IMG/VR virus record: IMGVR_UViG_3300044445_000054 | From: a virus | Taxonomy: Duplodnaviria > Heunggongvirae > Uroviricota > Caudoviricetes | Length of the DNA stretch: 64,000 nucleotides | Direction: 5' to 3' (one strand) | Shown: one piece after another, positions 24,188-44,232 of the stretch | Position numbering within the stretch: position 1 is the first letter of the stretch | Layout of the letters: each line of letters starts with the position of its first letter | Translations under genes and position numbers: made by a program | Notes under the pieces: model-generated | What the model was told of the DNA's origin: nothing | Database searches by the model: none | What the model saw: only the letters and a program-made list of their open reading frames with translations

Positions 24188-24784
24188 TTACTTGGACTCG
24201 ACGGTGAACGAGGTCGCCGCCTTGTTCTCGATGGTCGCCGCGGCGATGATGCGACGCTGCATCGCCTGCGACAGCCCCTCGTTGGCGAGCGCCGCGGTGA
24301 GTGCACCGGCTTCGAGCCGGGTCGAGGCCGCCTTGGTCGTGGCGGTCACGACGTAGCGGTCGCTGTCGAACACGACGCCGTTCTGCACGTCGCCGGTGAT
24401 GATGCCCAGCTTGGTCAGCTCGGTCTTGGCCTTCTTCTTCTCGGCCTCGCCGGTGCGAACCAGCTCGGCGGCGACGCCCAGCTTGCGGACGGCCTGCTCC
24501 TTGGCGCTGTCGGCGTCGAGCGGCTTGAGGAGCGTGTCGAGGGCGGCTTTCACGAGGGTCTTGAAGTTCTTCATGGCATGTCCTTTGGGAGTCAGGTTGC
24601 GAATGTCCACGACGCGCTCCCGGCCGTCGTAGTCGAAGCGAGCGAGGATCAGGTTGCGGTCACTCGACCGCGTCTTCACCTGCATCTTGGTGATGGTGCA
24701 GGCCTTCCCCGACAATGTCGAGGAAGGCCCGGTGTAGACACAGTCGCTACCACGCATCATGTAGCGACCGTTGTTCGGGTCCAC
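24188..24784 (-). CDS. hypothetical protein (198 aa; alternative internal start at 24574 with AAGGA SD)
   Basis: Coiled-coil-like C-terminal half. Confidence 0.45.
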   Translation of the reverse strand: MDPNNGRYMMRGSDCVYTGPSSTLSGKACTITKMQVKTRSSDRNLILARFDYDGRERVVDIRNLTPKGHAMKNFKTLVKAALDTLLKPLDADSAKEQAVRKLGVAAELVRTGEAEKKKAKTELTKLGIITGDVQNGVVFDSDRYVVTATTKAASTRLEAGALTAALANEGLSQAMQRRIIAAATIENKAATSFTVESK

Positions 24785-25192
24785 TTACCCGTCCAGCGCG
24801 GCAAGCTCGGCGCGCAGCGCCTCCGGCGACTTCGACCCCAGCTCGCGACGCTCGGCCGCGGCGATCGCGTCGAGCAGCACCTCGCGCTGCTGGCGCTTGT
24901 TGACGAGTTCACGCTCACGGGCGTTGGCGGCCTCGCGGTCGGCGATCACGAACTTCACCAGTTCGAGCTTCTCGTTCAGCTCGGTGCGCGCCGGGTCGGT
25001 CGACGCGGTGGTCACGAACGAGCGGGTGCCCGCCTTGTCCAGCTCGTCGGCGATGCCGATTGCGACGTCGTTCAGGTTCGCCTTGCTGACGCTGGTCAGC
25101 GGCAGGCCGAAGAGCTGCTCGGTGGTGAGCAGCCCCTGCGGCGAGTTGAAGCGGAAGCGCTTGCGCGCGGCGATTTCGAAGAGATTGGGCAT
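24785..25192 (-). CDS. hypothetical protein (135 aa)
   Basis: Protein-like composition. Confidence 0.45.
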   Translation of the reverse strand: MPNLFEIAARKRFRFNSPQGLLTTEQLFGLPLTSVSKANLNDVAIGIADELDKAGTRSFVTTASTDPARTELNEKLELVKFVIADREAANARERELVNKRQQREVLLDAIAAAERRELGSKSPEALRAELAALDG

Positions 25193-27156
25193 CAGAACTG
25201 TACCTCGTATGTGCGGCCATCGGCGATCGCAATCACCTTGTCACCGCGGGTGGAAGAGAAACCGACGCCGGACAGCTGGCTGTCAGACGGCGGGCACTTG
25301 GTCTTGGAGGACAACACCTCGAAGACCTTCCGGTGCGGGTCGAGCGACCCACGCAGGAACTCGTTGACGAAGCCACGGGTGGCGTCGGGGTTCTTACAGC
25401 CTTCCAGCATAAAGAACCAGTGCTTGTTGCCGACATCGCCCGCACCCTCCCAGAAGTTGGGCGAGGTCATGATCGTGTCGACGCGGACCGGGGTCAGCGT
25501 CTTGACGCCCCACTTCTCGGTCGAGACCGAGCGGTTGGTCATGCCAGTGCCGTGCTTGATGCCCGCCAGCTGGCCGTTGGCGATCGTGAGCGTGATCGAC
25601 ACATTCTCGCCGGTTCGCATGCCCTTGGGGTAGGACAGCTCGTGCAGCGCGCCCTGCACCTCGATCTCCAGCCGGAAGCCTTCATTCTCGCTGTAACGGC
25701 GGCTGTACTGGTTGACGGTGAACTTGTATTCGCCGTCGCGGGGCATGACCTTCCACGCCATGTTCTCGACCGGGTTGGTGCGGTTGGTGGCCGCGCCAGC
25801 GTTCATGTCGACGTCGAGGATGCCACGCTTCTCGTAGAAGGCAATGTGCTGACGATCGGGCGTGTCGCAGTGCAGATCGAGGTCATCGCCGTTGAACCAG
25901 CCGAGGCTGACCCGCATGGCACCGTCGACCCGTCCGCCTGCCGCCTTGACGCGCTCCTTCATGCCGGTGTCCGCCAGCTCGCCGTCGTACATCCAAGCGA
26001 AGCCGTTGCTCCACTTGAACAGCTGGCCGCCGTCATCATAGACGGGCGCGGTCAGCGACACGAAGTTGCTCTGCTGGCTGTTGGCGATGACCAGCTCGAC
26101 CGACTTCTTGGGCAGCGCCATGAAGGCCTCGATCGAGATCGGCGTCGCGTCCTTGGACACGGTCGCGGCCTTGACCTTGGTCGACCCCATGAGCAGGTCG
26201 GCAAGGCCGCCCTTCATCTTGCCGCGCACCTCGTTGTCGACGAACAGCACGTCGTTGACGCTCACGTCCTCGATTGTGGCGTAGCGGCGGTCGACCGCAT
26301 GCTCCAGACCCAGCTCGGCGAGCTTGGCGACGGCCTGCTCGATCATCTTGGGGGTGATGAGCGCGGTCGGACGCTTATAGTTCTCCGGCGCGACCTTCGC
26401 CTCGAACTTCTTGACGGCCTGCTCCAGCTCGGTGCCATCGGCGAGGTCGGTCAGCAGCGTGCCGATGACCGTGTTGCGGAAGCGGGCGTTGCGGTTGTCG
26501 AGGTTGGCCCAGATGAAGGCGTTGCGGTCATCGGCGGACAGGTAGTCGCGCTGGAGATCGCGGAAGCCCTTGATCGACGCGACGTGTTCCGCGCCGCGGT
26601 ACAGCGCCTTGGCCTCGATCAGGTCGAGGACCGTCTCGAAGTCGCCGACGTTCAGCTCTTCCAGACCGCGGCGCAGCACCTGCGCGGTGGTGTTGATGTC
26701 GCCGCGTGCCTTGTCGGGCGTGGCGGACAGGTGGCGGGTCGCGACCTTGCCGAGGAAGTGCTCCCAGCGGATCGTGGTGTCGTGGTTGTCCCAGTTCGGC
26801 GCGCTGCCGAAGCTGCGCTCCTTGGTGCGGAACACCGAGACGATCGGAGCCTGCAACACGACATCGTTCAGGCGGCGGGCGACCTCGTTGTACGGGTAGG
26901 GCATGTCGTCCATGCCGGTCCACACCGACTCGCGGTGGCCGTCGTCGTAGATCGCGACCACGTTGCCGAGACGCCGAATGAAGTTCTTGTCGGCGTTACA
27001 GTCGTGGACGGTGCGGACCCGGTAGATCGGGTCGGTGCCTTCGGGGAAGGCGGCGAGATAGCTGGCGAACAGGTCTTCGACGTCGACCACGAACAGTTCG
27101 CGCTTGGCGAGGTTGTCGTACTTGGCGGCGACGGCGGCTGCGAAGGTCTTAAACAT
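25192..27156 (-). CDS. large hypothetical protein (654 aa)
   Basis: Long ORF with excellent composition. No motif I can name. Confidence 0.65.
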   Translation of the reverse strand: MFKTFAAAVAAKYDNLAKRELFVVDVEDLFASYLAAFPEGTDPIYRVRTVHDCNADKNFIRRLGNVVAIYDDGHRESVWTGMDDMPYPYNEVARRLNDVVLQAPIVSVFRTKERSFGSAPNWDNHDTTIRWEHFLGKVATRHLSATPDKARGDINTTAQVLRRGLEELNVGDFETVLDLIEAKALYRGAEHVASIKGFRDLQRDYLSADDRNAFIWANLDNRNARFRNTVIGTLLTDLADGTELEQAVKKFEAKVAPENYKRPTALITPKMIEQAVAKLAELGLEHAVDRRYATIEDVSVNDVLFVDNEVRGKMKGGLADLLMGSTKVKAATVSKDATPISIEAFMALPKKSVELVIANSQQSNFVSLTAPVYDDGGQLFKWSNGFAWMYDGELADTGMKERVKAAGGRVDGAMRVSLGWFNGDDLDLHCDTPDRQHIAFYEKRGILDVDMNAGAATNRTNPVENMAWKVMPRDGEYKFTVNQYSRRYSENEGFRLEIEVQGALHELSYPKGMRTGENVSITLTIANGQLAGIKHGTGMTNRSVSTEKWGVKTLTPVRVDTIMTSPNFWEGAGDVGNKHWFFMLEGCKNPDATRGFVNEFLRGSLDPHRKVFEVLSSKTKCPPSDSQLSGVGFSSTRGDKVIAIADGRTYEVQF

Positions 27157-27592
27157 GGGCTTCTTCCAATTCTGGCAGGGTGTTGAAGTCGTCGAGGTTG
27201 AAGTAAAGGCGGCCTGCGCCTCGCATCTGTCCTTTCAATTTCTTGGGGGTGAGGAACTGGCTCGGGCTGGCCACCACCTTGACGGTGATCTGGTTCTCGC
27301 CGGAGCGGCTGACGTGGTATCGCTCGATCTGGAGCACGGTGCCCGACGGCAGATTACCGTCGAAGCCGCGGGCTTCCCGCTCACTCTTGCGCCACTCGTG
27401 ATAGGCTTCGACCCATGTCGACCCGGCCCCGACCGTGCTGATGCCCGTTGCCTTGGTGAAGGCGTCGAAGTTGTACTTCGGTTGGCTCCACAACGTCTCT
27501 TCATTATCCGAGTCGTTCTTGAACCTGTCACTCGACGCCCAGTCCTCGGCGAGCCGCCACTGGCTGTCGAGGGGAGGCAGAAATGCCTTCAT
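27149..27592 (-). CDS. hypothetical protein (147 aa)
   Basis: MKAFLPPLDSQWRLAEDW... Confidence 0.45.
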   Translation of the reverse strand: MKAFLPPLDSQWRLAEDWASSDRFKNDSDNEETLWSQPKYNFDAFTKATGISTVGAGSTWVEAYHEWRKSEREARGFDGNLPSGTVLQIERYHVSRSGENQITVKVVASPSQFLTPKKLKGQMRGAGRLYFNLDDFNTLPELEEAHV

Positions 27593-27733
27593 AGCTGATC
27601 CCTTATGAAGCGTGCGAGGTCGCAGTCGACAGGCTCGCACTCGTGGTGGTCAGGGGACTCGCCCCGGAGCGAAAAGCGGCGCAGGTGGGAGTCAGGGATG
27701 TTGTTGCCCTGACCCCACACCTGCGGCTCCCAC

Positions 27734-28507
27734 TCAGCGTCCGGCGACGGCGGAGACGAGCGCATCGCCCTGCGTCGTGATCTGCACCTTGCCGCCGCGC
27801 GTCACCGGCTGGAAGTACGGCTGACCATCGACGACCGTGATGTCGAAGTGATGGACGACGGGAGGGTTGACGTTGCGCAGTTTGATCGCGCTGCCGGTGC
27901 CTCCTTCCGAGGCATGGAAGCGGCCTTCCTTGGTGAAGGTGTACCAGCGGTTGTCGACGCCAACGACGGAATTGCGCGAATTGGCGATCGTGATATTGCC
28001 GTCCTTGCCTTCGGCGATGACGGTCACGGGAGCCGCAGTGCCGCTGGTGTTGACGATTTCGAGCGGCTTGGTGGTGTCGATGATGGTCACGGTGATGATC
28101 TCCAAGTTCTTGAGGTACGATACAGGCGAAGGGCCGCTGGGGTTTTTGTCATCCCAATCGACGCGGGCCGACGAGATGCCGAACTCATCGACCAGACCAG
28201 TTACTGTTCCAGCCGAGTCAGGATGGTATTTCTGACCGCGGCTGGCACCTACGCTCTTGATAGCGCAGTAGTGAACGCGGTCGCCGACTTGGATCGGGCG
28301 CTCGATCAAGACGAGGTTGGTTTCGAGGACTGCTTGGGTCGCCGTCCGATTGCCGTCGTCGTACTCGATGACATAGCGGTGGCCGTCCGGCTCCGCGTAC
28401 ATACCGCTCGTGCGCAGCACCGTCGCGGGCTTGTCGTGGCGGCCGATCGTGGCCCCGACGTAGCGGACACGGTCACCTTTCCGATATTTGGGGTCGGGTA
28501 TATTCAT
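27734..28507 (-). CDS. paralog-family protein A (two KOW/SH3-like GDRVRY repeats plus a DTTKPL domain)
   Basis: KGDRVRYVG...VGDRVHYCA...IIDTTKPLEIVNTSG. Shares a domain with 29773..30396 and 32871..33473. Confidence 0.55.
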   Translation of the reverse strand: MNIPDPKYRKGDRVRYVGATIGRHDKPATVLRTSGMYAEPDGHRYVIEYDDGNRTATQAVLETNLVLIERPIQVGDRVHYCAIKSVGASRGQKYHPDSAGTVTGLVDEFGISSARVDWDDKNPSGPSPVSYLKNLEIITVTIIDTTKPLEIVNTSGTAAPVTVIAEGKDGNITIANSRNSVVGVDNRWYTFTKEGRFHASEGGTGSAIKLRNVNPPVVHHFDITVVDGQPYFQPVTRGGKVQITTQGDALVSAVAGR

Positions 28508-28698
28508 TTGAACATCTCCTTGGGGTCGACCACGCGGGCGACCTGCGGCGGGGGTGGGACTTGGGCGGCCAAGCGCATCATGTCCTGACCATTCATGGGG
28601 CGATCGAGCTGCGCCATGATGTGGTCAGGAACATGCGGCTTGGGCTGGTACAGGCTCTCGGTCATCGCACGAAAGAGGCCGTCCAACCCGCGGCTCAT
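28504..28698 (-). CDS. small hypothetical protein (64 aa)
   Basis: ATGA coupling. Confidence 0.35.
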   Translation of the reverse strand: MSRGLDGLFRAMTESLYQPKPHVPDHIMAQLDRPMNGQDMMRLAAQVPPPPQVARVVDPKEMFK

Positions 28699-28913
28699 GT
28701 GAAGTCGATGCGCGCGACCTGCGCCATCATCACCAGCGAGGGCGTCTTGCTACCACGCAGGGTGCCGAGCAGCCCGCCTTCGACCACCGCCTCGATCGTG
28801 AAATTGATGTGGCTACCGTCGGCCATCGTGATGAAGACCGTGTCGTTGCCCTTCTGCTGGGCGGCGACGAGGGCACCTGTGACGGTGCGGGCGACGAGAC
28901 TAGGACCGGACAT
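28695..28913 (-). CDS. small hypothetical protein (72 aa)
   Basis: Internal ATG MSGPSLVARTVTG... Confidence 0.35.
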   Translation of the reverse strand: MSGPSLVARTVTGALVAAQQKGNDTVFITMADGSHINFTIEAVVEGGLLGTLRGSKTPSLVMMAQVARIDFT

Positions 28914-29268
28914 GTATCTTGGCCTCCTTGGGTTTGCCGTCTTCGCAGACGAGTTCGAGGGCGAACTTGGCGGTGCCGTAGTCGTCCCACACGCCGGAGA
29001 GGCTCGACATGCCCCGGCCGTATGGCTCGGCACCGCCTCCGCCGTGGGTGCGCAGCGGGTAGAAGCCGCTGCTGGTCACGACTTCGTTGACGAGGATGGG
29101 ACGCATGGTGTCACTCTCGCGCCCGCGCTCCCGGCCGTTGTCGGTCCGAAATCGCATGATCTCGTTCTCGACTTCGACCAAGAGGTCGCCGTTGCTCGTG
29201 ACTCCGACCTTCCTGACGATACGCATATCCGGCATGCGGAAGCGTACCGGCTTGGAAGCGTCGATCAC
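28900..29268 (-). CDS. hypothetical protein (122 aa)
   Basis: GTG start with AAGGAGGA SD. GTGA overlap with the 42-aa gene. Confidence 0.4.
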   Translation of the reverse strand: MIDASKPVRFRMPDMRIVRKVGVTSNGDLLVEVENEIMRFRTDNGRERGRESDTMRPILVNEVVTSSGFYPLRTHGGGGAEPYGRGMSSLSGVWDDYGTAKFALELVCEDGKPKEAKIHVRS

Positions 29269-29393
29269 TTCGCGTCCTCCTTCACCTTCGGGGCACCCGC
29301 CTTGGCACGGCCATTGACGAGGCTCGGCTCGACGCGCTTGCCGAAGTCCTGATGGGCGGCGGTGACGGACGTGCGGTACGGGGAAACGATCAT
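29265..29393 (-). CDS. very small ORF (42 aa)
   Basis: Strong AAGGAGAA SD before ATG (MIVSPYRTSV...). Confidence 0.3.
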   Translation of the reverse strand: MIVSPYRTSVTAAHQDFGKRVEPSLVNGRAKAGAPKVKEDAK

Positions 29394-29410
29394 GGTAGTT
29401 CTCCTTGTGA

Positions 29411-29776
29411 TTACCGGTCGTAGACCAGTTCCTTGGCAAGCACGACGAGCAGGCGTCGCGCGGTGGCGTAGTCGGTGGCGTAGACCTCGCCGCGGTGGCT
29501 GCGGTTCCACGCCTGCGTGGCGGTCGGGCTTTCGACGGCGATCTTCCACGTCCCCGAGGCCTCGTTATACATCCGCACGAAGCCGCGCAGGCGGTAGCTG
29601 CCGGGCGGATACAGCGTCGTGGTGCCCATCATGTTGCCCGGCCCCAGCAGGACCAGCTCCCACTGGCCCTTGCCGGGGTTCTTCATGGCACGCGTCGCCT
29701 GGGCCAGCCACAGGTCGTTCGTGCCGGGGATGCGCTCGACTTCCTTGAGCACGCGACCTGTGACTGTCGGGGTCAC
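29411..29776 (-). CDS. hypothetical protein (121 aa)
   Basis: ATGA coupling with paralog B. Confidence 0.45.
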   Translation of the reverse strand: MTPTVTGRVLKEVERIPGTNDLWLAQATRAMKNPGKGQWELVLLGPGNMMGTTTLYPPGSYRLRGFVRMYNEASGTWKIAVESPTATQAWNRSHRGEVYATDYATARRLLVVLAKELVYDR

Positions 29777-30396
29777 GAGACGATCGCCTCACCCTCGCAG
29801 TTGCTGACGCCGAGCTTGACGACACGCGCCTTGTCGGTGTTCGAGCGAACCAGCTTGGCGTCGACGATGATGCCGTCGCGGTAGGTCAGCTCGATGTCGG
29901 CGATCGCCGTGCCGCCCGTTGGTCCCTTGTGGTAGCTCGGGTGACCGAACCCGACGTTGCTCGCAGGCACGCGCAGGTGCAGCTTGGTCTCGACCACCTT
30001 GTTCGACAGGACGATACCAGAGCCGTGCCGCGGGTCGGGCTGGTGGCTGCGCACGAACTTGCCCTGTTTGTCGAACATGTACCAGCCGCTGACAAAGCTG
30101 TTCGGGCCTGACAGGTCCACGAGAATGTGACCCTCGCTGGTCTCAGTGATGAACGTCACGTCGAGCGGGCCGGTGCTGTTGACCGCGGTCAACGGCTTGG
30201 TGGTGTCGATGGTCTTGGTCATTTCGATCAGCTCCAGATTATAGGTGTTGGGGTACGAGGGCGGGCCACGGCGGTCCCAAAGGACTTCGCAAATGACTCC
30301 GCCAAACTGCTTGAGCGTGCCCTCCGCGCCGACATGGTCGAGCATCGCGTCCCGGCCGCCGATCTTGTACCGGACGCGGTCACCCTGCTTGAACAT
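29773..30396 (-). CDS. paralog-family protein B (one GDRVRY repeat plus a DTTKPL domain)
   Basis: MFKQGDRVRYKIGG...IDTTKPLTAVNSTGPLDVTFI. AAGGAGAAG SD. Confidence 0.55.
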   Translation of the reverse strand: MFKQGDRVRYKIGGRDAMLDHVGAEGTLKQFGGVICEVLWDRRGPPSYPNTYNLELIEMTKTIDTTKPLTAVNSTGPLDVTFITETSEGHILVDLSGPNSFVSGWYMFDKQGKFVRSHQPDPRHGSGIVLSNKVVETKLHLRVPASNVGFGHPSYHKGPTGGTAIADIELTYRDGIIVDAKLVRSNTDKARVVKLGVSNCEGEAIVS

Positions 30397-30676
30397 GGTA
30401 CTTCTCCTTGAGGGTGGCGACCAACCCGCGCAGAATGTCCGTGCAGCCGTCGTCGTAGAGGTCTTGCAGGCGTTCCATGTCGTCCTGCTGCTCGGTGGGC
30501 ACCTCGACACGCAGGCAGGCGTCACCGCGCATCAGGTGGGCAATACTTTTGGTATCGCCACCCGCGGCGGCCAGCGCCGTCCGTTGGTCGGGCGTCATCA
30601 TCAGGCCCACCACGCAGGGCGTGGTGTACTTGCAAGTCTGGCCGTCAGCGGAGGCCTCGACGTCGTCGGGGATCAT
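30380..30676 (-). CDS. hypothetical protein (start uncertain)
   Basis: ORF 30380..30808; internal ATG chosen. Confidence 0.3.
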   Translation of the reverse strand: MIPDDVEASADGQTCKYTTPCVVGLMMTPDQRTALAAAGGDTKSIAHLMRGDACLRVEVPTEQQDDMERLQDLYDDGCTDILRGLVATLKEKYHVQAG

Positions 30677-30825
30677 CTGGAGACCGGTGCGCAGGTCAAG
30701 CGATATGGTGTCGGCCACGTTGGGCGAGTCCTTTGATGAGGGCGGCGACGGACATGCGAATGCCCGCCGTGCCGGTTGCTGCCGAAACCCGAACATGATC
30801 CGGGTCAACTGCTCGGACGTACAGC

Positions 30826-31359
30826 TTAGATGGCATGATACGTATCCGGGTCGTTCGAGTCGAAGCTGTCGGGGATGCCGAACGCGTCGTAGTATTCGAG
30901 GCGGCGCGCGGCACCCTGCGGTGTGTTATCGACTGCCGACCAGTCGCCGCCGAACAGGAAGTAGAAGGCCTCGTCGCCGTTCGGCGTGAGCGGGGACAGG
31001 AACACCCGGTTGCGATACTTCCACCAGTTGATGTCGCCATCCTCGTTGAAGTCGCTATCGACCGCGAGGAAGCCTGCCGACGGGCCGTGCCCGACGGCGC
31101 ATGCGACCGCACCGCACTTGGCAACGCCGCCGTTCTCGCGGGCGTACTGGTTGGCGATCGCCGCGGCTTCCTCCACCGCTTGGTTCAGGGCGCAGTATTC
31201 GACCTCGCTGGCGCGATACTTCAGGCGAGTCTCGATGACCGACAAGCTCTGAAAGAAATCCTGCATTTCGAAGCCCTGATAGTCGGGCGGCAGGTTGCCC
31301 AAGTAAGCGGCAAGCACTTGGCGGTTGTCGCGCTGTTGTTCGAGAGTATAAACGGTCAT
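30826..31359 (-). CDS. hypothetical acidic protein (177 aa)
   Basis: Good composition. Confidence 0.5.
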   Translation of the reverse strand: MTVYTLEQQRDNRQVLAAYLGNLPPDYQGFEMQDFFQSLSVIETRLKYRASEVEYCALNQAVEEAAAIANQYARENGGVAKCGAVACAVGHGPSAGFLAVDSDFNEDGDINWWKYRNRVFLSPLTPNGDEAFYFLFGGDWSAVDNTPQGAARRLEYYDAFGIPDSFDSNDPDTYHAI

Positions 31360-31415
31360 GTTACTTCTCCACTAGCGAGTGACCAAGTGGTGCCGAAGCA
31401 CCACTTGGGTAGTCG

Positions 31416-32255
31416 TTATTGGGGAATAGTGACGCAGGGCGTATCGCTGTTGCAGTACACAGTGTTGGGCAGCTTGCCGTCCCACTTGCGCATGTATTCG
31501 GACTGGTAGCCCGGATTTTGGGCGACGACCGCGTTGCGCAGGCGAGTTGCCTCGGCTTGGCCGCGCGCCTTCTCGATCTGGGCATCGGCAGCGGCCTTGG
31601 CCTCGGCCACCTGTGCCTGTCCCTCGGCCTCGGCGGTCAGCACGCGGGCCTTGGCTGCGATCGCGGCCTGCTCGGTCTGGGCACGGGCGTTGATGCGCTC
31701 GGTGATCGCCTCGGGGATGCGGATCGGGCCAGCCCAATCGAGCTGCTCGATGATGAGGCCACGCGGCGCGAAGTAGGCGGCGACCTTGCGCTGGGCCTGC
31801 TGGATTAGCGCGGCCTTGCGCTTGCCGTAGATGTCCTCGACCGACATGGTGGAGGCGACCGACACGATCGCGGCCTTGACGCGGTCACGCACCGGGCCGG
31901 ACACGATGGTGTCCATCTCGCCACGGTACGTCTGGAACAGGATCGGGGCCTTGTTCGGGTCGGCGCGGTAGGCGACGTTGACGTCGGCCGACACGATCAG
32001 GCCGTTCACGTCTTGGAACGTGATCGACTCGTCACGCTCTTCCGACTTCTGCCACGAATAGCGGTTCGTGTAGGTCGGGTAGGAGTAGATGTCGGAGCCG
32101 AACTGGAACCAGTAAGTGCCCACGCCCAGCGGCTTGGCCTGCACGCCTGCGCTGGAGCCGTAGTTGTTGACCTTGACGCCGATGTTGCCCGACGAAATGC
32201 GGTCGCAGGCCGCGAGCGATAGGCCAGCGATGAGGATGGCGAGGAGTTTCTTCAC
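31416..32255 (-). CDS. SPFH/band-7 family lipoprotein
   Basis: GTG start with AAGGAAAT SD. Lipobox signal VKKLLAILIAGLSLAAC. SPFH core followed by an Ala/Glu/Gln-rich coiled coil, AEAEGQAQVAEAKAAADAQIEKARGQAEA. Confidence 0.65.
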   Translation of the reverse strand: MKKLLAILIAGLSLAACDRISSGNIGVKVNNYGSSAGVQAKPLGVGTYWFQFGSDIYSYPTYTNRYSWQKSEERDESITFQDVNGLIVSADVNVAYRADPNKAPILFQTYRGEMDTIVSGPVRDRVKAAIVSVASTMSVEDIYGKRKAALIQQAQRKVAAYFAPRGLIIEQLDWAGPIRIPEAITERINARAQTEQAAIAAKARVLTAEAEGQAQVAEAKAAADAQIEKARGQAEATRLRNAVVAQNPGYQSEYMRKWDGKLPNTVYCNSDTPCVTIPQ

Positions 32256-32434
32256 GGGATTTCCTTCTTCACGAATGTGTAGAGAGCGTGTGAGCCGTAG
32301 AGCGTCGCAGCCGCGATGAGCAGCGCGAGGACCAAGGCACCGTCGTTCTGGAGGTTGACGAGACCGGGGATGACCACCCGGACGATCAGGATGATCGCAA
32401 CCAGCCACGCGAGGAAGATGTAGAAGCGAGTCAT
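32252..32434 (-). CDS. small membrane protein (60 aa, 2 TM) coupled to the SPFH gene
   Basis: MTRFYIFLAWLVAIILIVRVVIPG...LVLALLIAAATLYG. GTGA overlap. Confidence 0.4.
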   Translation of the reverse strand: MTRFYIFLAWLVAIILIVRVVIPGLVNLQNDGALVLALLIAAATLYGSHALYTFVKKEIP

Positions 32435-32646
32435 TCTGATCTCCGGTGTGGGTAGGGCAAGTGGGCGGATTAGGCCCGAGGTCATGATTGCCTCCTGTGT
32501 TGTGCCCGCCAATTCTGGTGGTACGGGCGCACCGAATGCTTATGCAGCTAGGGCGGGTCTTACACCTTGCGGATGCCCAGTTCTATATGTTGTCGGCAGA
32601 GAGTACAGGGTAGTTTGCTACGTGTCGGGAATTGGCCCGGTCTGGG

Positions 32647-32883
32647 TCATGCGAAGAGGCTCCAGATGAAGTTGACGAACGCGCCGATGCCGTACACCGC
32701 GCCGAAGAAGATGCCGAGGACGAGCATCGTGATGCCAAGGCCCTTCAGCTCGTCGGTGAAGGCACGCCACACATAACGTGCCCCGCGCTTGCGGAAAGTG
32801 GTGATGACGGCCCACAGCATGAGGGCGGCGAGCGCGATGCAGAGGATCACGATCCCCATCTGCATGTTGCTCACTTGATCCAC
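32647..32883 (-). CDS. small 2-TM membrane protein (78 aa), holin-like topology
   Basis: MQMGIVILCIALAALMLWAVI...GITMLVLGIFFGAVYGIGAF. Confidence 0.45.
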   Translation of the reverse strand: MDQVSNMQMGIVILCIALAALMLWAVITTFRKRGARYVWRAFTDELKGLGITMLVLGIFFGAVYGIGAFVNFIWSLFA

Positions 32884-33473
32884 TCCACGCCGGTCAGCAC
32901 GCCGTCGGTGAGGGTCAGGTCGAGGTTGATGATGTTATCACCCCATTTGGCCACTGCGCCCGCCTTGCTGATCTCGGGAGCGTTCACCCACTCGCCCAGC
33001 GTCCCCCGGCCAAAGCCGGGCCGGATGCGGCCGGTGGATGCCAGCACCTCGAACACGATGAGGGTGCGGTCGTTGCGCAGGTGGAGGACGGGTTCGGAGC
33101 CGTCGGTGGGCGTGAACGTGCCGACGTGCGTGTAGCTGTCGTCACCGCCCTTGGTCGTGATCGGCTTGGTCACGTCGAGGACGATGCGCGGCACGAGCTG
33201 GCCCCACTGCGACAGGCCGTCCTCGCGCAGCGTGGTGCTGGCGATCTCGTTGTTCAGGTATGCCTTGCGGAGGTCATAGCCGAACCGCTCCGCGTTCTCG
33301 AAGCCACCGTTCCAGCCGGTGATGCCTCTGGCGCGCTTGGCGAACACGTAGAACTCACCCATGCCGTCGCAGTGGAAGGCGATGGGGCGCGGCCCGAACC
33401 CGACGATCTCGACTTCGGGGCGGCCCTCGATCATGACGTCGGCAGGCTTGGTGTCGGGGGTGATCTTAATCAT
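32871..33473 (-). CDS. paralog-family protein C (DVTKPI domain)
   Basis: RIVLDVTKPITTKGGDDSYTHVGTF aligns with the DTTKPL blocks of 27734..28507 and 29773..30396. Confidence 0.5.
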   Translation of the reverse strand: MIKITPDTKPADVMIEGRPEVEIVGFGPRPIAFHCDGMGEFYVFAKRARGITGWNGGFENAERFGYDLRKAYLNNEIASTTLREDGLSQWGQLVPRIVLDVTKPITTKGGDDSYTHVGTFTPTDGSEPVLHLRNDRTLIVFEVLASTGRIRPGFGRGTLGEWVNAPEISKAGAVAKWGDNIINLDLTLTDGVLTGVEWIK

Positions 33474-34084: not shown

Positions 34085-34221
34085 GCCACGATCGTCCAGA
34101 AGCTGCCGCGACGCTCACGAGGGGTCAGGGCCAGCCACTGTGCGCGGCGGATGTGATAATTCGAGTGCGTCATGGTTCTTCTCCGATGGAGGCGAGCGGG
34201 TTCGCTCTATGTTCTCTTTCC

Positions 34222-34338
34222 AACTCTCATTTTTACAGTGTAGTCTCTATATAATTTTTTTATGACTGCTTCTTAAAAGATATAGAAAAAGAAAATAAAA
34301 GAGAAGGGACTACACTGTAAAAATGGGAGTTATGACTG
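34222..34338 (-). promoter_or_regulatory. AT-rich conserved element, copy 2: two inverted half-sites, CATTTTTACAGTGTAG (34228..34243) and CTACACTGTAAAAATG (34310..34325), around a 66-bp AT-rich core
   Basis: Same TTYTAC-AGN-GTAR core as the other copies. The core contains TCATAAAAAAATTATATAGAGA in minus sense. Lies between the HTH gene and the downstream small-gene operon. Confidence 0.5.
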
Positions 34339-34353
34339 CCCTTAGAATGGACC

Positions 34354-34821
34354 TCACCCGACCGCGAGAAGCGCGGTATTCCGCCATTTCTGGCGCAGGT
34401 CACGCCTGCCGGTGCACATCACGACCACCTGATCGCGGGTCAAACCGAGCGCTTTGGCGATCTTGGGCTGGCTCATGCCCGCATCCCGCATATCGAGCAC
34501 CGCGAGCCGCACAATCGGTGGCACCCAGCCCTGCTTCCAGCCGCCGTCCTGCATGGCGCGAAGCACGGCCAAACCATCCTCGCGGGTCGGTTCGGCCACG
34601 TTCTGTTCCACCATCGCCTGAACGTGGCCGAAGCCCTTGAGGTGGTCGCGCAGCCGCTCGTAATGGCGCTTCGCGTTGGGCACCCATCCAAAGACGTGGC
34701 GCGCGGCGGGCCAACCGATGGTCTCCACGAACGCGACCAACTCGCAGGCGTCGGCGTAGTCCAGGCGGGTGACGGGAATATACTTCGCCACCCTCCTGAA
34801 CTTCTGGGAGCTATACCGCAT
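34354..34821 (-). CDS. HTH-domain protein (possible transcription regulator or sigma-region-4-like; start uncertain, 34821/34857/34875)
   Basis: C-terminal HTH MSQPKIAKALGLTRDQVVVM. Immediately upstream of AT-rich element copy 2. Confidence 0.45.
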   Translation of the reverse strand: MRYSSQKFRRVAKYIPVTRLDYADACELVAFVETIGWPAARHVFGWVPNAKRHYERLRDHLKGFGHVQAMVEQNVAEPTREDGLAVLRAMQDGGWKQGWVPPIVRLAVLDMRDAGMSQPKIAKALGLTRDQVVVMCTGRRDLRQKWRNTALLAVG

Positions 34822-35041
34822 CTCCGCGGGCAAAAGGGCGTCCATCGTGTACCGCATAGAGCACGACCCTACCATCGTCCTCCTCGTGCGGGTAGGTGTT
34901 AAACCACGCATCCGCATAGGCCTGGCGGGCCTTGGCGTTCCGCAACTCGCGAGCCGCGGGCGTCTTGTCGCGGATGGAGAACGCGACCCCGATGCACAGG
35001 GCGATGACTCCGAGCACGCCCAGCACGTACAGCGCGCCCAT
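34811..35041 (-). CDS. small membrane protein (76 aa)
   Basis: N-terminal TM segment VLGVLGVIALCIGVAFSI. Confidence 0.35.
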   Translation of the reverse strand: MGALYVLGVLGVIALCIGVAFSIRDKTPAARELRNAKARQAYADAWFNTYPHEEDDGRVVLYAVHDGRPFARGDAV

Positions 35042-35788: not shown

Positions 35789-35802
35789 CTTAAATGTTTA
35801 AG
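35789..35802. promoter_or_regulatory. palindromic box CTTAAATGTTTAAG (copy 3; overlaps the stop of 35798..36529)
   Basis: Identical 14-mer. Confidence 0.45.
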
Positions 35803-36529
35803 CGTTGACGGCGACCGGGGCGGCTTCCATCGCCGCGTTGATGCGATCATCGAACGATGCGGTGACGGCGGCGAAGTCATCATAAACGCCGCTCAATTCG
35901 TCATCGCTGGCGGCGTCGATTGCCAGCATCAAGGCGGCCAGCATATCGGCCAGCGACGTAGCGGGCGGCGTAGCATCCGCCTCCGGCGCGGGATTGGATG
36001 CATCCAGCTTGGTAGCTTCCGCCTCCAGCTTGGCCGCCGCGGCGGCTTCCTCTGCTGCAATGCGGGCCGCCTCCTTAGCGGCGGCTTTCTTGGCGTCGGC
36101 CGCCGCCTTACGGATCAACCCGGCACGGTAATGGATGGAAGAGACACCGGCACGAATGTCCCGCTTGTCATCATCCGACAACGCATCGAACGTTTCAGCG
36201 ACAAGGCGAGCGTTCGAGAAGTAAACTTCCATGCGGCTCTTGGCTTTCTTGCCCGCGTCGGTGGTGGCCAGCGACGGCCAACCCGCCGCCATCTTGCTAT
36301 CGCCAATCAACGCATCCAGCGTCAGCGGCTTGGTATCGTCCGCCGGATAGGCCAGCGTAAACACGTTGGCCCCCCATGCCTTAGCCGTATCGGCCAGCTT
36401 GCCCTCGACTTCGATGACAGTCGAGACAAGCGACGCGGCGCTTGCCAGCATCATGCTACGTGCATCCGGGGCGGCGGCGTCGATCGTGAGAGCGTCGGTG
36501 GCGTTGATGTCGATGATGGAAACAGTCAT
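35798..36529 (-). CDS. hypothetical acidic/Ala-rich protein (243 aa)
   Basis: AAAGGAAC SD. Coiled-coil-like middle region. Confidence 0.5.
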   Translation of the reverse strand: MTVSIIDINATDALTIDAAAPDARSMMLASAASLVSTVIEVEGKLADTAKAWGANVFTLAYPADDTKPLTLDALIGDSKMAAGWPSLATTDAGKKAKSRMEVYFSNARLVAETFDALSDDDKRDIRAGVSSIHYRAGLIRKAAADAKKAAAKEAARIAAEEAAAAAKLEAEATKLDASNPAPEADATPPATSLADMLAALMLAIDAASDDELSGVYDDFAAVTASFDDRINAAMEAAPVAVNA

Positions 36530-40278: not shown

Positions 40279-43200
40279 ATGGCCGACGTGAAGACCTCTG
40301 CGTTCATGCTTTCGAGCGCGACGATCATGATCGGCCGCGCCTTCGTGGACGACGTGTTCGCCCTGACCCCCGACAAGCACTCCGTCGGCATGGTGTCCGA
40401 AGTCAACATCACGATGGACAGCTCGCTCACCGAGCTGACGAACGGCGTTGCACAGGCGACGGTCGACTCCAAGCGCACCGGCCTGAGCACGGCAATCAGC
40501 GGCAACGTCTTCGAGATGACCGCCCAGAACTTCCTCCGCGCACAGGGCATCACGACCGCCGCGACGCCCGTCAAGCGCGGCATCCTGATGGGGTCGGCCG
40601 CTGGTGGCTCGACCTCGCTCTCGGTCGCCTCCGACCCAATCCCCGGCGAAGCCACGTCGGCGCTCACGTCTGTCGGCGACATCCCGGCAGGATCGACCAT
40701 CCTGATCCAGCGCGGCGACGGCGAGACCGATTACATCTTCCCGACCGTGTCGAGCGGCGCGGCGACGCTGAACGCCGGGCGCTACACGATCCCGATTGCG
40801 GGCGCGAGCGCGGTCCCCGCCGACATGTCGTTCCTGATCGGCGCACGGGTCTGGATCGTCCAGCCCGTCCCCGTTGGCGACATCGGCGATGACGAGTTCT
40901 TCTGCGTCAAGATCGTCGGCACCCTGTCCAACTTCGATCGGCCGGTGGTCTACATCGCGCCGAAGGTGAAGATGGTAAAGGGCTTCTCGGCCGCCTTCAA
41001 CGAGACGCAGTACAGCTCGATGCAGTGGGAGCTGAAGCCCCACATGATGAGCCGCGGCGAGATCGCCTCCGGTGGCCGCCTGTCCGAGATCGGCGCGCGT
41101 CGCACCGGCCGCCTGTTCGTGGGCGCGGGCAACGACAGCGCAACGCCGGGGGCCGTTGTCCCCGACGCCACGTTCTCGACCAACCCCAGCTTCACGCCGA
41201 CCAGCGGCAACTCGGACACGGTCTTCACCGCCAACGACGGTGTCATCGTCAACGGCGCGTTCGCCGGACGCCGCTGGCTGCTCAGCGGCACGGCGATCGG
41301 CAGCGGAGCCACGATCAAGACGAACGCCGCGGGCCAGCTGGTGCTGGAAGTCTCGGCGCTCGGCACCAATGGTCGGGTCATCCAGTACACGACCGCGCCG
41401 CTCACGGTCGCCGCGGCTGCTGCCAAGACGCTGACGTTCCGCAACCCGCCGACGGTTCAGCTGAACGAGGGCGACTCGGGCACCAAGACCTTCACCTACT
41501 ACATCGACGCGTCGGAGGCTCCGACCAGCAATCTTGTTGTTCCGCTTACGTTCCAAGCGGGCGGCACCGACGCCTCGGATTATCCGGGCGGCACGCTGCC
41601 GTCGGTGACGAGCGCCACGATCCTCGCCGGGCAGACGTCCGTGCGCGTCGACATCGTCACTTCGGGCGACACGACGGTCGAGGGCAACGAGACCTTCAAC
41701 CTCCTGCTGTCGACGCCGACCGGCTGGACCGTCGGTGCCTTCACCAGCGCCAGCGGTGTCATCCTGAACGACGACGTCGCACCCAGCCCGACCGTCTCGC
41801 TCACCGCCGTGGATCCTCAGAACGAGGGCAACAGCGGCGTCACCAACTACGTCTATACCGTGACCCGCTCGTCCACGAGCGGTGCGGTCAACGTGCCGTG
41901 GGCGTTCGCGGCAGGCACGACCAATGCGGCCGACTTCTTCGGCGGCCTGCCAACGGGCGGCACGGTGGCGCTCGCCAACGGCGTGGCATCCGGCACCTTC
42001 ACCATCATGGTGCAGGGCGATGTCGACGTCGAGTCGAATGAGACCTTCACGGTCAGCCTGAACCCGCCGTCGGGGTACATCCTCGGCGCGACGAGCAGCG
42101 CGACGGGCACGATCCTCAACGACGACACGGTCTCGGCGATCGTGCCGTTCACGTCGGCGTTCATGACCGGCGATAGCCGCATGGACAACTCGGGCGGTCG
42201 AGGGGTAACCACAACCCTTTCGCTCACCTACGGGCAGACGGGTTACTCCAGCGCCGGGTTGATCCAGCCCATGCTTGGCAACAAGTGGCTTTGGCCGGAG
42301 GGGTTCCAGCGGTCGGTCGGTGCCAGCACCACGCTGCGCATGGTCGAGGCAAATAAGACCGCCTCGTTTGCGCTGACGGGAAACACAGCGTTCGACAGCA
42401 CCGCCAACGTTTACGACAAAATCTTCAACCGTGGCGCTGACGGTCGCTACGCCCTGCGCGATCCGGGCACGGGCGCGCACGTCTTCGAGCTGAACAGCGT
42501 GAACGACGGCGGCGGCAACGGGTACTATAATCAGCCCTTTACCGCTTCCAAGTCGATCATTCATACCGCCGCAGACATCGACGCCAATCTGGCGGCGGGC
42601 AAGGTGGTGTGGCTGTTCAACGGGTGCCCGTCGTACGCATCGGCGTACACGATGGAGCTTCGCACGATCACCGGGAATAGTTGGACTGCGACCCAGACGG
42701 CTGGCTTCATCGACGGCTTCGATTACGGCGCACCCGGCGTAGTCGGTGAGTTCGGTAGCACGCCCGCTGATTACCGAGTCATGACCCGCAAGGGCAGCAA
42801 CCCCGGTCAGTACGAATACACGGTCGACGCCAACGGCAACTACGTCGCGGGCGGCACGGCACCGACGCGAGTGTGGGTCACGCACACGGGCGGCGGCACC
42901 CTAAACGCGATCACGCCGACTTCCTCGCACATCAAGACCATGTGGGCGTGGTACAACAGCAACGCCGCAAACTTCGTGTATAACGGCAATGACTACGGCA
43001 TTCCGGGGTGTCGCTACAACCGCGATCCGAAGCGGCTCATCATCGTCGATACGATGAAGTGGCTGCGCGCTGACCTAAATGACGGCGACGTCATGGCGGC
43101 CAAGCCCGGCACGATGGACATTCTGCGTTTGCACCACAACATTCTCGGTGCATTCTGGATCAGTAAGGCCGTCGAAGAGGCGATGGCCACGGCGGGTTAT

Positions 43201-44232
43201 GCCGCACAGCCGTCGCTCGACAAGCGCCCGATGCGCAACAACTGGCCTGCGGCGATGGCAGCGGGAACTGCAAATCCGACGCTGACTTGCACTCTTCCTC
43301 CGTCCATGCGGATGGCCGTTCCGACTCAGCTGCGTCTCGGAACCGTCGTTGTTGGTCTGGTGGACACGGCAACTGGCAATATCACAACGGCCCCTGGCGC
43401 GACTTATGCAATTACGGCGGGCAATATCAACTTCGCAACGGGTGCGCTTACCGTGACGTTTGCGGGAACGCCGCCTAACAGCACTCGACTGTATTGCGAG
43501 CAGGATTTCGGCGACGGCGCGGGCGTTGGGGGAAATCTGATCCTTAACGGCATGCTTGACATGACGCCCTTGGACGGAAGCAACATCAACTTCGCTCGCA
43601 CGGGCACCTCAACGATAACGGGCATCGCGAACTCGGAAGTCCCCGTGGGATACACGCTCCAGTCGTCGGGCAATGGTATGAACACGGCGATTGCAAACGG
43701 CACCGCATCGCTGACGGTGAGTTCCGACACCACAAACGGGTATCCGATGTTCCGGCTGTCTGCGAAGGGTATCCACAGCTCAGCTATTGCCTTCACGCTG
43801 CAGCAGGCCAACGGGCCGTACGCGGCTCTGGTCCAACCCACCGACAAGATTATGGCAGGGGCAACTCTGGTTCTTGAAGCTGGCTCGGACGGCTGGCTGT
43901 ACGGCTTCGGTGGTTGCAATGTGTCGGGTACGCTGTCGATCCCCACGACCGATAAGACCGGCCCCAACGGTACGTTCGCGGTTACGCAGGTTTCCTCGAA
44001 TGGATCGCGACTGGGTCAGAACGCGCAGAGCCTGTATGTGGACAGCGCGCTGCTTGCCGCCAACGGGGGGCAGCCGTTCAAGAACCACTACCTCGGGCCT
44101 CAAGTCCAACCTGACGTGCAGCCGACTGGCACCGGAGGGTCGTTCTCCTTTTCGGTCGGAGCCAACGTCCCTTTCAGTTTCAAGATTGGCATTGGCCAGT
44201 ATCACTCGCGCGTTCGCAACGACGTAACCTAA
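40279..44232 (+). CDS. 1317-aa virion protein: N-terminal major-tail-protein-like domain, three Calx-beta-like repeats, large C-terminal domain
   Basis: Residues 1-~290 are highly similar (I estimate roughly 80%, not computed) to the 283-aa protein at 54975..55823. Repeats of VDIVTSGDTTVEGNETFNLLLS / VQGDVDVESNETFTVSLN. AAGGAG SD. Confidence 0.8.
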   Translation: MADVKTSAFMLSSATIMIGRAFVDDVFALTPDKHSVGMVSEVNITMDSSLTELTNGVAQATVDSKRTGLSTAISGNVFEMTAQNFLRAQGITTAATPVKRGILMGSAAGGSTSLSVASDPIPGEATSALTSVGDIPAGSTILIQRGDGETDYIFPTVSSGAATLNAGRYTIPIAGASAVPADMSFLIGARVWIVQPVPVGDIGDDEFFCVKIVGTLSNFDRPVVYIAPKVKMVKGFSAAFNETQYSSMQWELKPHMMSRGEIASGGRLSEIGARRTGRLFVGAGNDSATPGAVVPDATFSTNPSFTPTSGNSDTVFTANDGVIVNGAFAGRRWLLSGTAIGSGATIKTNAAGQLVLEVSALGTNGRVIQYTTAPLTVAAAAAKTLTFRNPPTVQLNEGDSGTKTFTYYIDASEAPTSNLVVPLTFQAGGTDASDYPGGTLPSVTSATILAGQTSVRVDIVTSGDTTVEGNETFNLLLSTPTGWTVGAFTSASGVILNDDVAPSPTVSLTAVDPQNEGNSGVTNYVYTVTRSSTSGAVNVPWAFAAGTTNAADFFGGLPTGGTVALANGVASGTFTIMVQGDVDVESNETFTVSLNPPSGYILGATSSATGTILNDDTVSAIVPFTSAFMTGDSRMDNSGGRGVTTTLSLTYGQTGYSSAGLIQPMLGNKWLWPEGFQRSVGASTTLRMVEANKTASFALTGNTAFDSTANVYDKIFNRGADGRYALRDPGTGAHVFELNSVNDGGGNGYYNQPFTASKSIIHTAADIDANLAAGKVVWLFNGCPSYASAYTMELRTITGNSWTATQTAGFIDGFDYGAPGVVGEFGSTPADYRVMTRKGSNPGQYEYTVDANGNYVAGGTAPTRVWVTHTGGGTLNAITPTSSHIKTMWAWYNSNAANFVYNGNDYGIPGCRYNRDPKRLIIVDTMKWLRADLNDGDVMAAKPGTMDILRLHHNILGAFWISKAVEEAMATAGYAAQPSLDKRPMRNNWPAAMAAGTANPTLTCTLPPSMRMAVPTQLRLGTVVVGLVDTATGNITTAPGATYAITAGNINFATGALTVTFAGTPPNSTRLYCEQDFGDGAGVGGNLILNGMLDMTPLDGSNINFARTGTSTITGIANSEVPVGYTLQSSGNGMNTAIANGTASLTVSSDTTNGYPMFRLSAKGIHSSAIAFTLQQANGPYAALVQPTDKIMAGATLVLEAGSDGWLYGFGGCNVSGTLSIPTTDKTGPNGTFAVTQVSSNGSRLGQNAQSLYVDSALLAANGGQPFKNHYLGPQVQPDVQPTGTGGSFSFSVGANVPFSFKIGIGQYHSRVRNDVT

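Follow-up and report, generated by a model that had tools for sequence, protein, structure and literature searches.

Diverged paralogues of a predicted all-beta protein family in the replication-side module of an uncultured phage

Large lytic phages, such as those of the T4 type, carry multi-copy accessory gene families in the hyperplastic early regions of their genomes. At the protein level, the closest described systems to the locus reported here are the NHL-repeat six-bladed propellers (PF01436), which include Brat, TRIM2/3, and TRIM71/LIN-41, and the small KOW, Tudor, or SH3-like barrels of Spt5/NusG, Tudor, and DUF1918 proteins. The present locus lies in a 64,000-nt stretch of phage DNA, analysed over its whole length and hereafter called the window. 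An earlier note on this DNA had described a three-member paralogous family there, and the three ORFs are indeed present, all on the minus strand and with coding-type GC3 (0.79–0.92): A (27734..28507, 257 aa), B (29773..30396, 207 aa), and C (32871..33473, 200 aa). The GDRVRY repeats reported in the same note were also found, at residues 11–16 of A (with GDRVHY at 75–80) and 5–10 of B. However, the count has to be revised, as D (28900..29268, minus strand, GTG start), which had been placed among the small genes of the region, is a further family member; JGI (as P0059) and Logan also call it at 122 aa. All four are intact ORFs (GC3 0.75–0.92), and on the similarities detailed below we regard them as diverged paralogues of one previously unannotated, probably all-beta, family.

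The layout of these proteins is modular: an optional N-terminal adaptor is followed by a beta unit of ~70 residues (from IDTTKPL to LRNK) and by a small beta cap at the C-terminus, of which two types occur. Member A carries two KOW/SH3-like barrels (about 28304–28507 and 28088–28303, both scored by the family HMM), a DTTKP-LRNK unit (27863–28084), and an 'A-type' cap (HHFDITVVDG...VQITTQGD; 27737–27862) that is common to the family members P0007, P0024, P0030, P0034, and P0036. B has a single barrel (30226–30396), a unit (29998–30213), and a 'B-type' cap with a C-terminal tail (29776–29997). In C, a different N-terminal domain (33189–33473) precedes a divergent unit (32982–33185) and cap (32874–32981), and D consists of the core only, with its unit at about 29086–29268 and its cap at 28903–29085. 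In other phages, 'IDWTKPLELDDGTP...VRNR' units serve as the N-terminal adaptor, and some members contain two or three tandem units. Only the first 17 residues of the VRNR-type unit align with the core unit (E=1e-4, probability 54%).

A and B are clear paralogues in BLASTP (E=2e-15, 37% identity over 147 aa), in an alignment that spans one barrel and the DTTKP block and is not of low complexity. In contrast, the A–C and B–C comparisons gave no significant BLASTP match (E 0.08–0.6); the lack of significant pairwise similarity, which the earlier note had named as grounds for rejecting the family, therefore goes against C if the comparison is made strictly pairwise. C is joined to the family through an intermediate. 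Its whole core (residues 99–200) matches the metagenomic member P0032 at E=6e-13, and P0032 in turn matches the A/B profile (E=4e-12 in a search of 1.84 billion proteins) as well as A (3e-9) and B (2.5e-6) directly. In addition, the N-terminal domain of C matches that of member P0057 (E=6e-7), and C has a full-length counterpart in the related contig L006 (33% identity, E=4e-17). By these similarities C is a genuine, divergent member, although its direct score with an HMM lacking C was only marginal (E=0.014, rank 4 of 850 window ORFs). An HMM built without C and D recovered B (1e-55), A (1.5e-49, both barrels being scored), and D (5e-5). D also matched the 53-sequence family profile (hhalign probability 94%, E=1.5e-7, 111 columns), which supersedes a shallow three-sequence hhalign comparison that was negative for C and D, and it matched P0054 in BLASTP (1e-14). 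Thus all four proteins match the family profile over the IDTTKPL...LRNK unit and the cap, C directly only at the margin. Translated in six frames, the window has four matches to the pattern [ILVM]D..KP[LIVM], one each in A, B, C, and D. In the closest homologue of A, the DTTKP motif is not kept. Two other ORFs, 24188–24784 and 35798–36529 (which carries DDTKPL), were considered as extra members and rejected from sequence reading and HMM scores.

When 1.84 billion proteins were scanned in full with HMMER, only 56 cluster representatives reached E<=1e-3. All contigs examined were phage-like and shared the synteny PrimPol – small genes – family copies – DUF7831/DUF8224 – rIIA/rIIB; so far, only a small set of uncultured phages, on phage-like metagenomic contigs, is known to carry the family. 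Word-indexed searches of 5.8 billion proteins, which returned a single homologue of A and nothing for C, had not revealed it. Similarly, IMG/VR scans with A and C gave nothing, while a scan with the family alignment gave one contig; JGI metagenomes contained four family loci. The 50,697 GenBank phages contained nothing similar, whether searched by megablast with the region's DNA or by tblastn with A, C, and P0010, a near-consensus member (two matches at E of at least 0.02 were spurious), and there was no real family match in 185,579 species genomes, where a 57-residue match in a Methanopyri MAG (core HMM E=0.0075 over 22 columns) was treated as chance. Judged by the capsid protein, the nearest isolates, at ~47%, are Xylophilus phage Lumi, Achromobacter phage JWF, and Caulobacter phage Seuss; a literature search on these isolates, DUF8224/DUF7831, and NHL repeats in phages found nothing relevant. 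The earlier statement that no annotated function could be recognised holds: Pfam, NCBIfam, and PADLOC gave no family match, and PHROG matches were confined to the N-terminal barrels. A–D, P0010, and P0048 were without a PADLOC match at E<=0.1; PADLOC covers defence systems and not phage anti-defence, and this result therefore says little about an anti-defence role.

As had been proposed from the sequence, the cluster lies in a replication- or early-side module, on the same strand as genes for a PrimPol primase, a ligase, RNR, and rIIA/rIIB-like proteins, and opposite to the terminase and capsid genes. The gene coupling noted earlier was likewise confirmed, with 4-nt ATGA/GTGA overlaps at 28504, 28695, 29773, 32252, and 27589 and overlaps of 8–32 nt elsewhere. 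Two small minus-strand ORFs between D and A, of 64 aa (28504–28698) and 72 aa (28695–28913), are coupled by ATGA overlaps and have no match in the family libraries; their homologues occur in the same order in the related contigs L002 and L008, and L002 preserves the order D – 72 aa – 64 aa – A. A 58-aa ORF (27589..27765, minus strand, GC3 0.81) shares 32 nt with the 3' end of A, is ATGA-coupled to the next gene, and is conserved in contigs L001 (93%) and L002 (54%, E=2e-11). Further along, an AT-rich intergenic region (34222..34331) contains a 27-nt inverted repeat, whose arms (34222–34248 and 34305–34331) are 93% complementary and whose 18-nt core occurs nowhere else in the window (chance expectation 0.01), and a sigma-70-like promoter site (34321..34292, minus strand). 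The adjoining gene (34354–34917) encodes an HTH_23 domain. We infer that this region is the putative promoter/operator of the minus-strand operon carrying the family.

In the related phages, two to four family copies occupy the corresponding place between primase and rIIA/rIIB, and every related contig examined retains such copies, with 2–3 or more in each. Each copy has its own counterpart in other phages; these are old paralogues, and the expansion described in the earlier note is not a recent local one. The positional counterparts in relatives share 30–45% identity, as compared with 50–85% for flanking genes. Moreover, one hypervariable segment of A, of ~220 nt (27863..28082, minus strand), has been swapped relative to contig L001 (SRR31127296): identity within it is 52.5% at the DNA level, with 23 gap columns, against 93.9% upstream and 94.5% downstream. 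The segment corresponds to the whole DTTKP-LRNK unit (residues ~142–215), and the two versions differ from one another as much as they do from the rest of the family. Among the sequences compared there was no close donor, only short motif-coding matches. This swap is seen in one contig pair, the present phage and L001. The diversifying selection suggested earlier fares accordingly: fast divergence and unit swap are consistent with diversification, but neither amounts to a formal selection test.

We tentatively favor the reading that these proteins are host-binding paralogues diversified by duplication, domain shuffling, and recombinational replacement of whole units. The polar residues conserved across the family (TETSEGH, FVRS) are missing from A, C, and D, and the proteins are therefore read as non-enzymatic binding modules; they would act in the cytoplasm, since neither a signal peptide nor a transmembrane segment is visible in the sequences of A–D. 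The genes would be transcribed with those of the replication side, probably from the AT-rich region near 34.3 kb, and gene order points to expression early or in the middle of infection. At that time each paralogue would bind a different macromolecular partner, probably of the host, with the DTTKP-LRNK unit as the specificity-determining part and the barrels as docking domains. A role in host takeover or anti-defence is conjecture at this stage; domain shuffling, fast change, and segment swap are suggestive of a host–virus arms race, but not specific to it. The loss of polar residues in A, C, and D speaks against a shared enzyme activity, and canonical members could still have one.

Alternatively, the copies might be neutral 'filler', decaying duplicates in a hyperplastic region whose divergence reflects relaxed constraint. 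The members are very divergent, C and D lacking most of the residues conserved family-wide, and the region gains and loses genes between relatives (e.g., ORF 27149–27592 and the SPFH cassette described below). Nevertheless, the four intact ORFs with coding-type GC3, the conservation of each paralogue's counterpart in other, distant phages, the retention of copies in every related contig examined, and a family fold that is confidently predicted from the alignment all make this explanation unlikely. Fast divergence as such could reflect relaxed constraint instead of positive selection.

A bolder form of the host-binding reading, which we hold to be quite unlikely, is that the paralogues constitute a cassette library. 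The ~70-aa unit would then act as a specificity module in its own right, passed by recombination between paralogues and phages, with the near-identical DNA coding for the conserved motifs possibly aiding the exchange, so that an intracellular host-binding protein undergoes (semi-)programmed variation; the units might also be single NHL-like blades that co-assemble into mixed propellers.

Propeller assembly can also be considered on its own. Predicted structures are confidently all-beta (pLDDT 88.4 and 87.6), with, as the predicted secondary structure of the unit's center, a four-strand meander that resembles one blade of an NHL-type propeller. Against PDB sequences, the core profile matched only NHL-repeat propellers (Brat 2e-10 for the whole sequence, TRIM2/3 2e-7, TRIM71 2.5e-4), and five Brat blades aligned, each in turn, to family profile positions 25–56, the unit's center (ITETS-D/E-GHILV...W-IFDK-G-FVRS) aligning with successive blades. 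Weak matches to a Pfam 6-bladed-propeller family covered the same residues. The NHL model PF01436 was matched by none of 53 members at E<=0.01 and by none of 10 unit-only sequences at E<=10, the five or six tandem NHL blades of a closed propeller are not present, and the structural model of the core had no match in PDB or BFVD. With one blade per protein, copies or paralogues could nonetheless ring up and bind RNA or protein, as the NHL domains of Brat and TRIM71 do. This proposal draws on the NHL blades as the core's sole significant sequence similarity, on the weak Pfam matches, on the constant co-encoding of several paralogues, and on the two or three tandem units of some members, and we consider it improbable. 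As for the barrels, they have the five-stranded small beta-barrel fold of KOW, SH3-like, and Tudor domains, with no accepted match to a curated sequence model (KOW PF00467, SH3 families) and only sub-threshold ones to others (Tudor_3 0.061, DUF1918 0.14, and, in one member, SH3-C_UBE2O 0.0011). Such barrels and four-stranded meanders are generic folds, which counts against the favored reading.

It is equally improbable, in our estimation, that A–D are virion or host-range proteins, that is, structural or assembly accessories (tail-fibre-associated, for instance) in which the swapped unit reflects adaptation to a host receptor.

The region also encodes an SPFH/Band-7 lipoprotein (31416–32255, minus strand; lipobox LAAC), as had been recognised (Band_7 PF01145 2.5e-21, 77 bits against a cutoff of 23.6; phrog_200 'lipoprotein' 4.7e-66). 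Its GTG start, at 32255, gives the N-terminus MKKLLAILIAGLSLAAC, as read from sequence, and shares bases with the stop codon of the GTGA-coupled 2-TM ORF upstream (32252–32512, minus strand); no NfeD domain was found in this partner. A second ORF, of 78 aa (32647..32883, minus strand, 13-nt overlap with the stop of C), had been called holin-like, for which there is nothing beyond two hydrophobic segments: it has no Pfam match, only marginal PHROG matches of unknown function, and no lysis gene was identified near it. L002 and L008, which span the whole primase-to-rIIA interval, contain no homologue of the SPFH gene or of either 2-TM ORF, and the three genes are therefore placed outside the family's system, contrary to the earlier grouping. 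The cassette is an ordinary one, unrelated to the family and inserted in this phage: the SPFH protein is a typical member of the phage lipoproteins of this class (phrog_200), found in 360 GenBank phage records, and in Stenotrophomonas phage Piffle a coupled small membrane ORF likewise precedes the homologue. That the family works together with these membrane proteins as one functional unit, whether to remodel membranes or to exclude superinfecting phages, is highly improbable and largely refuted, since the interleaving of the genes on one strand and the translational coupling of several of them are set against family copies in L002 and L008 that lack the cassette, 360 unrelated phage records with SPFH lipoproteins but not the family, and family proteins devoid of signal peptides and TM segments.

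If the favored reading is true, an unannotated and structurally unmatched beta domain is maintained by a clade of uncultured phages in several diverged copies and is remodelled by shuffling and whole-unit replacement, a pattern suggestive of phage–host interface proteins such as anti-defence or takeover factors. The members (122–257 aa) would form a compact candidate set for binding screens, and the swap between two ~94%-identical genomes would pinpoint 70 residues under pressure, so that specificity could be tested with chimeras. A single NHL-like blade also bears on the origin of propeller repeats. By contrast, weakly constrained filler would be merely another family of phage dark matter.

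Compared with KOW, Tudor, and SH3-like proteins, the present family differs in that it lacks an NGN domain, passes no Pfam KOW/SH3 model, and has optional barrels, lacking in C and D as well as in the core-only members P0039, P0046, and P0058. Unit exchange, if it operates as in the cassette-library proposal, would be analogous to antigenic variation by gene conversion. Finally, whereas in sequence the family could be related to no named accessory family, from T4 or elsewhere, and its clade is small and uncultured, its setting is that of the T4-type hyperplastic regions, with small, fast-evolving, coupled genes between replication genes, copy number and content that vary among relatives, rIIA/rIIB-like neighbors, and, in relatives, a T4 Y00F-like gene.

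The DTTKP proteins, whose core consists of the IDTTKPL-to-LRNK unit and a C-terminal cap, have four members in the window, all encoded on the minus strand: A (27734..28507), B (29773..30396), C (32871..33473), and D (28900..29268). The first three, which the earlier note had described as paralogues, are present as ORFs with coding-type GC3. However, direct comparison bears out the paralogy only for A and B, which align over 147 aa comprising one GDRVRY barrel and the DTTKP block (BLASTP E=2e-15, 37% identity), whereas the similarity of C to A or B is not significant pairwise or with a three-sequence profile. C is connected through the metagenomic family protein P0032, which matches it over the entire core (6e-13) and also matches A (3e-9) and B (2.5e-6); in addition, the N-domain of C matches that of another family protein, P0057 (6e-7). 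D, which in the JGI and Logan calls has 122 aa and begins with (M)IDASKPV, and is therefore a core-only protein like P0039, P0046, and P0058, matches the 53-sequence family profile (hhalign 94%, E=1.5e-7), its closest relative being P0054 (1e-14). An HMM of the family from which C and D were omitted places B, A, D, and C at the top of 850 window ORFs, and no other ORF scores. Together, the profile match of D, the chain through P0032, and this ranking establish four members, which extends the original observation by one. The pattern [ILVM]D..KP[LIVM] has only four occurrences in the six frames of the window, all within the cluster (A, B, C, and D). The reported coupling of the small genes also holds, as 4-nt ATGA/GTGA overlaps are common in the region.

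Word-indexed searches of 5.8 billion proteins returned a single homologue for A (P0002, 71%) and nothing for C, and an A/P0002/B profile, run with HMMER against the full set of 1.84 billion representatives, recovered 56 proteins at E<=1e-3 (33 of them at E<=1e-10). Their consensus, IDTTKPLE..VTFITETS(E/D)GHILV...W.IF.K.G.FVRS..G.G..L.LRNK, is followed by a variable stretch and then the cap '..T..DG.V..VELVK', of which A has a type different from that of B, C, and D. Some relatives from other phages (P0021, P0031, P0033, P0035-37, P0042, and P0047-50) carry, before the core, one or two copies of a second unit of ~65 aa, 'IDWTKPLELDDGTP...HPAFP...ARR.GGLV.SNHKFHVRNR'; this 'IDWTKPLELDDGTP...VRNR' unit aligns with the core unit only in the lead-in and, apart from that motif, has only the RN ending in common with it. 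Pfam, NCBIfam, and PADLOC give no family match, and the PHROG matches of some family proteins are confined to the N-terminal barrels. The family was not found in 50,697 GenBank phages or 185,579 species genomes; it is nearly absent from IMG/VR and from JGI metagenomes (four loci). All examined contigs with a family protein are phage-like and syntenic, in the order PrimPol primase, small genes (often including a T4 Y00F-like gene), family copies (two to four, mostly side by side), DUF7831/DUF8224, rIIA-like, and rIIB. One of them, L012 (JBEVMN010000692.1), was binned into a Rhizorhabdus sp. MAG; because it is itself phage-like, with three family copies and rIIA-like, rIIB, and DUF8224 genes, its binning may be an artefact or may point weakly to a sphingomonad (Sphingomonadaceae) host. 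The family is thus rare, unannotated, and known only from phage-like contigs.

The window (64% GC), which derives from a JGI contig of 131 kb, carries a minus-strand module from about 0 to 39.4 kb, with a PrimPol/DUF5906 primase, RNR, ligase, helicase, and rIIA/rIIB-like proteins, and plus-strand terminase and capsid genes from 40.2 kb. The nearest isolates by capsid protein are Xylophilus phage Lumi, Achromobacter phage JWF, and Caulobacter phage Seuss (about 47% identity), and no GenBank phage matches the family region at the nucleotide level. Immediately upstream of the terminase, an unusual position for so large a protein, lies a 1317-aa ORF (40279-44232, plus strand) with a borderline Calx-beta match (26.8 bits, cutoff 27). 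The 654-aa protein at 25192-27156 (phrog_1735 / DUF8224) is widespread and uncharacterised: 545 GenBank phage records of very different types, among them N4-like, jumbo, Bacillus, and Caulobacter phages, contain a homologue over its full length, inconsistently annotated as 'structural protein', 'ATP-binding-cassette protein', or 'DNA-directed RNA polymerase'. An AT-rich gap (34190-34350), adjoined by an HTH-domain gene (34354-34917), contains an inverted repeat of 27 nt, with arms at 34222-34248 and 34305-34331 and an 18-nt core that occurs nowhere else in the window; the repeat overlaps a sigma-70-like promoter site on the minus strand. Judged from sequence, the gap is likely a promoter/operator, or possibly an origin; the element did not turn up in the related loci compared.

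In comparisons of the window with related contigs, the proteins of neighbouring genes are 50-85% identical (primase 84%, DUF8224 74%, rIIA-like 71%), and family proteins are 30-45% identical to their positional counterparts. As A, B, C, and D each have their own counterpart elsewhere, the paralogues are old. Around A, the window and a contig from SRR31127296 (L001) are about 94% identical, but at 27863-28082, which is exactly the DTTKP-LRNK unit of A, identity drops to 52.5% (23 gap columns) before recovering to 94.5%. The two versions of this unit resemble each other no more than they resemble any other family protein, and no close donor was found among the sequences in hand. Confinement of the drop to the unit points to its replacement as a whole by recombination and singles it out as the part on which pressure for change acts. 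The evidence for modular diversification of the family is clear. Distant paralogues and different phages encode IDTTKPL (28063-28084 in the window; also L002, L006, and L012) with DNA that is 95-100% identical over 21-27 nt; strong codon bias predicts such identity, which could also offer microhomology for unit exchange.

Several small neighbours of the family were also compared. A 147-aa ORF (27149-27592) separates A from the DUF8224 gene in the window and is missing from L001 (~94-97% identical), where the DUF8224 start codon lies at the same ATGA junction; it has homologues in L008 (51%) and L004 (36%), so near-identical phages differ here by a clean indel of gene size. A 58-aa ORF (27589-27765), with a homologue in L002 (54%), overlaps the 3' end of A by 32 nt; its non-overlapping part (~27592-27733) differs from L001 at a single position out of roughly 140 nt, against a divergence of ~6% in the flanks. 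Inspection by eye shows two GC-rich hairpins here; the ORF could be a small gene under conservation, or the stretch could also hold a conserved RNA or DNA signal. The 177-aa protein at 30826-31359 has homologues in all related contigs examined (35-42% identity), with two adjacent copies in L005 (2641-3815), and therefore represents a second conserved small family.

Given the family alignment, AlphaFold2 yields confident all-beta models (pLDDT 88.4 for full-length B and 87.6 for the core alone). Against all PDB chains, the core profile matches only NHL-repeat propellers (Brat 2e-10, TRIM2/3 2e-7, TRIM71 2.5e-4), and its positions 25-56, a four-strand meander in the model, align to successive blades; one alternative would accordingly make the family an oligomeric propeller. 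A, C, and D do not retain the polar residues conserved in canonical family proteins, and this speaks against an enzymatic activity common to the family. A-D show neither a signal peptide nor a TM segment, and the genes lie in the replication-side operon, downstream of the AT-rich region. For these reasons we favour, over a role in the virion or in host range, a reading of A-D as non-enzymatic intracellular binding proteins, in which each paralogue would bind a separate partner, probably from the host. A further alternative is that they are weakly constrained filler. The data are compatible with the arms-race idea of the earlier note, whose interpretation is supported in part.

A functional link to the SPFH lipoprotein, which with its translationally coupled small membrane ORF occupies 31416-32512, fares worst, since L002 and L008, which cover the entire primase-to-rIIA interval, have no homologue of the lipoprotein or of the two small membrane ORFs; these three genes are an insertion in the window phage. 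Lipoproteins of this SPFH type are common in phages, and the coupled ORF has no NfeD domain. A similar pair occurs in the N4-like Stenotrophomonas phage Piffle (2317-3289 of the locus), where a 45-aa 1-TM ORF overlaps the lipoprotein start, and the two genes may form a recurrent module.

Among known folds, the core is best labelled NHL-blade-like rather than an NHL domain, because the scores per blade are weak and the Pfam NHL model does not match the family sequences; the family combines familiar beta elements in an unfamiliar arrangement.
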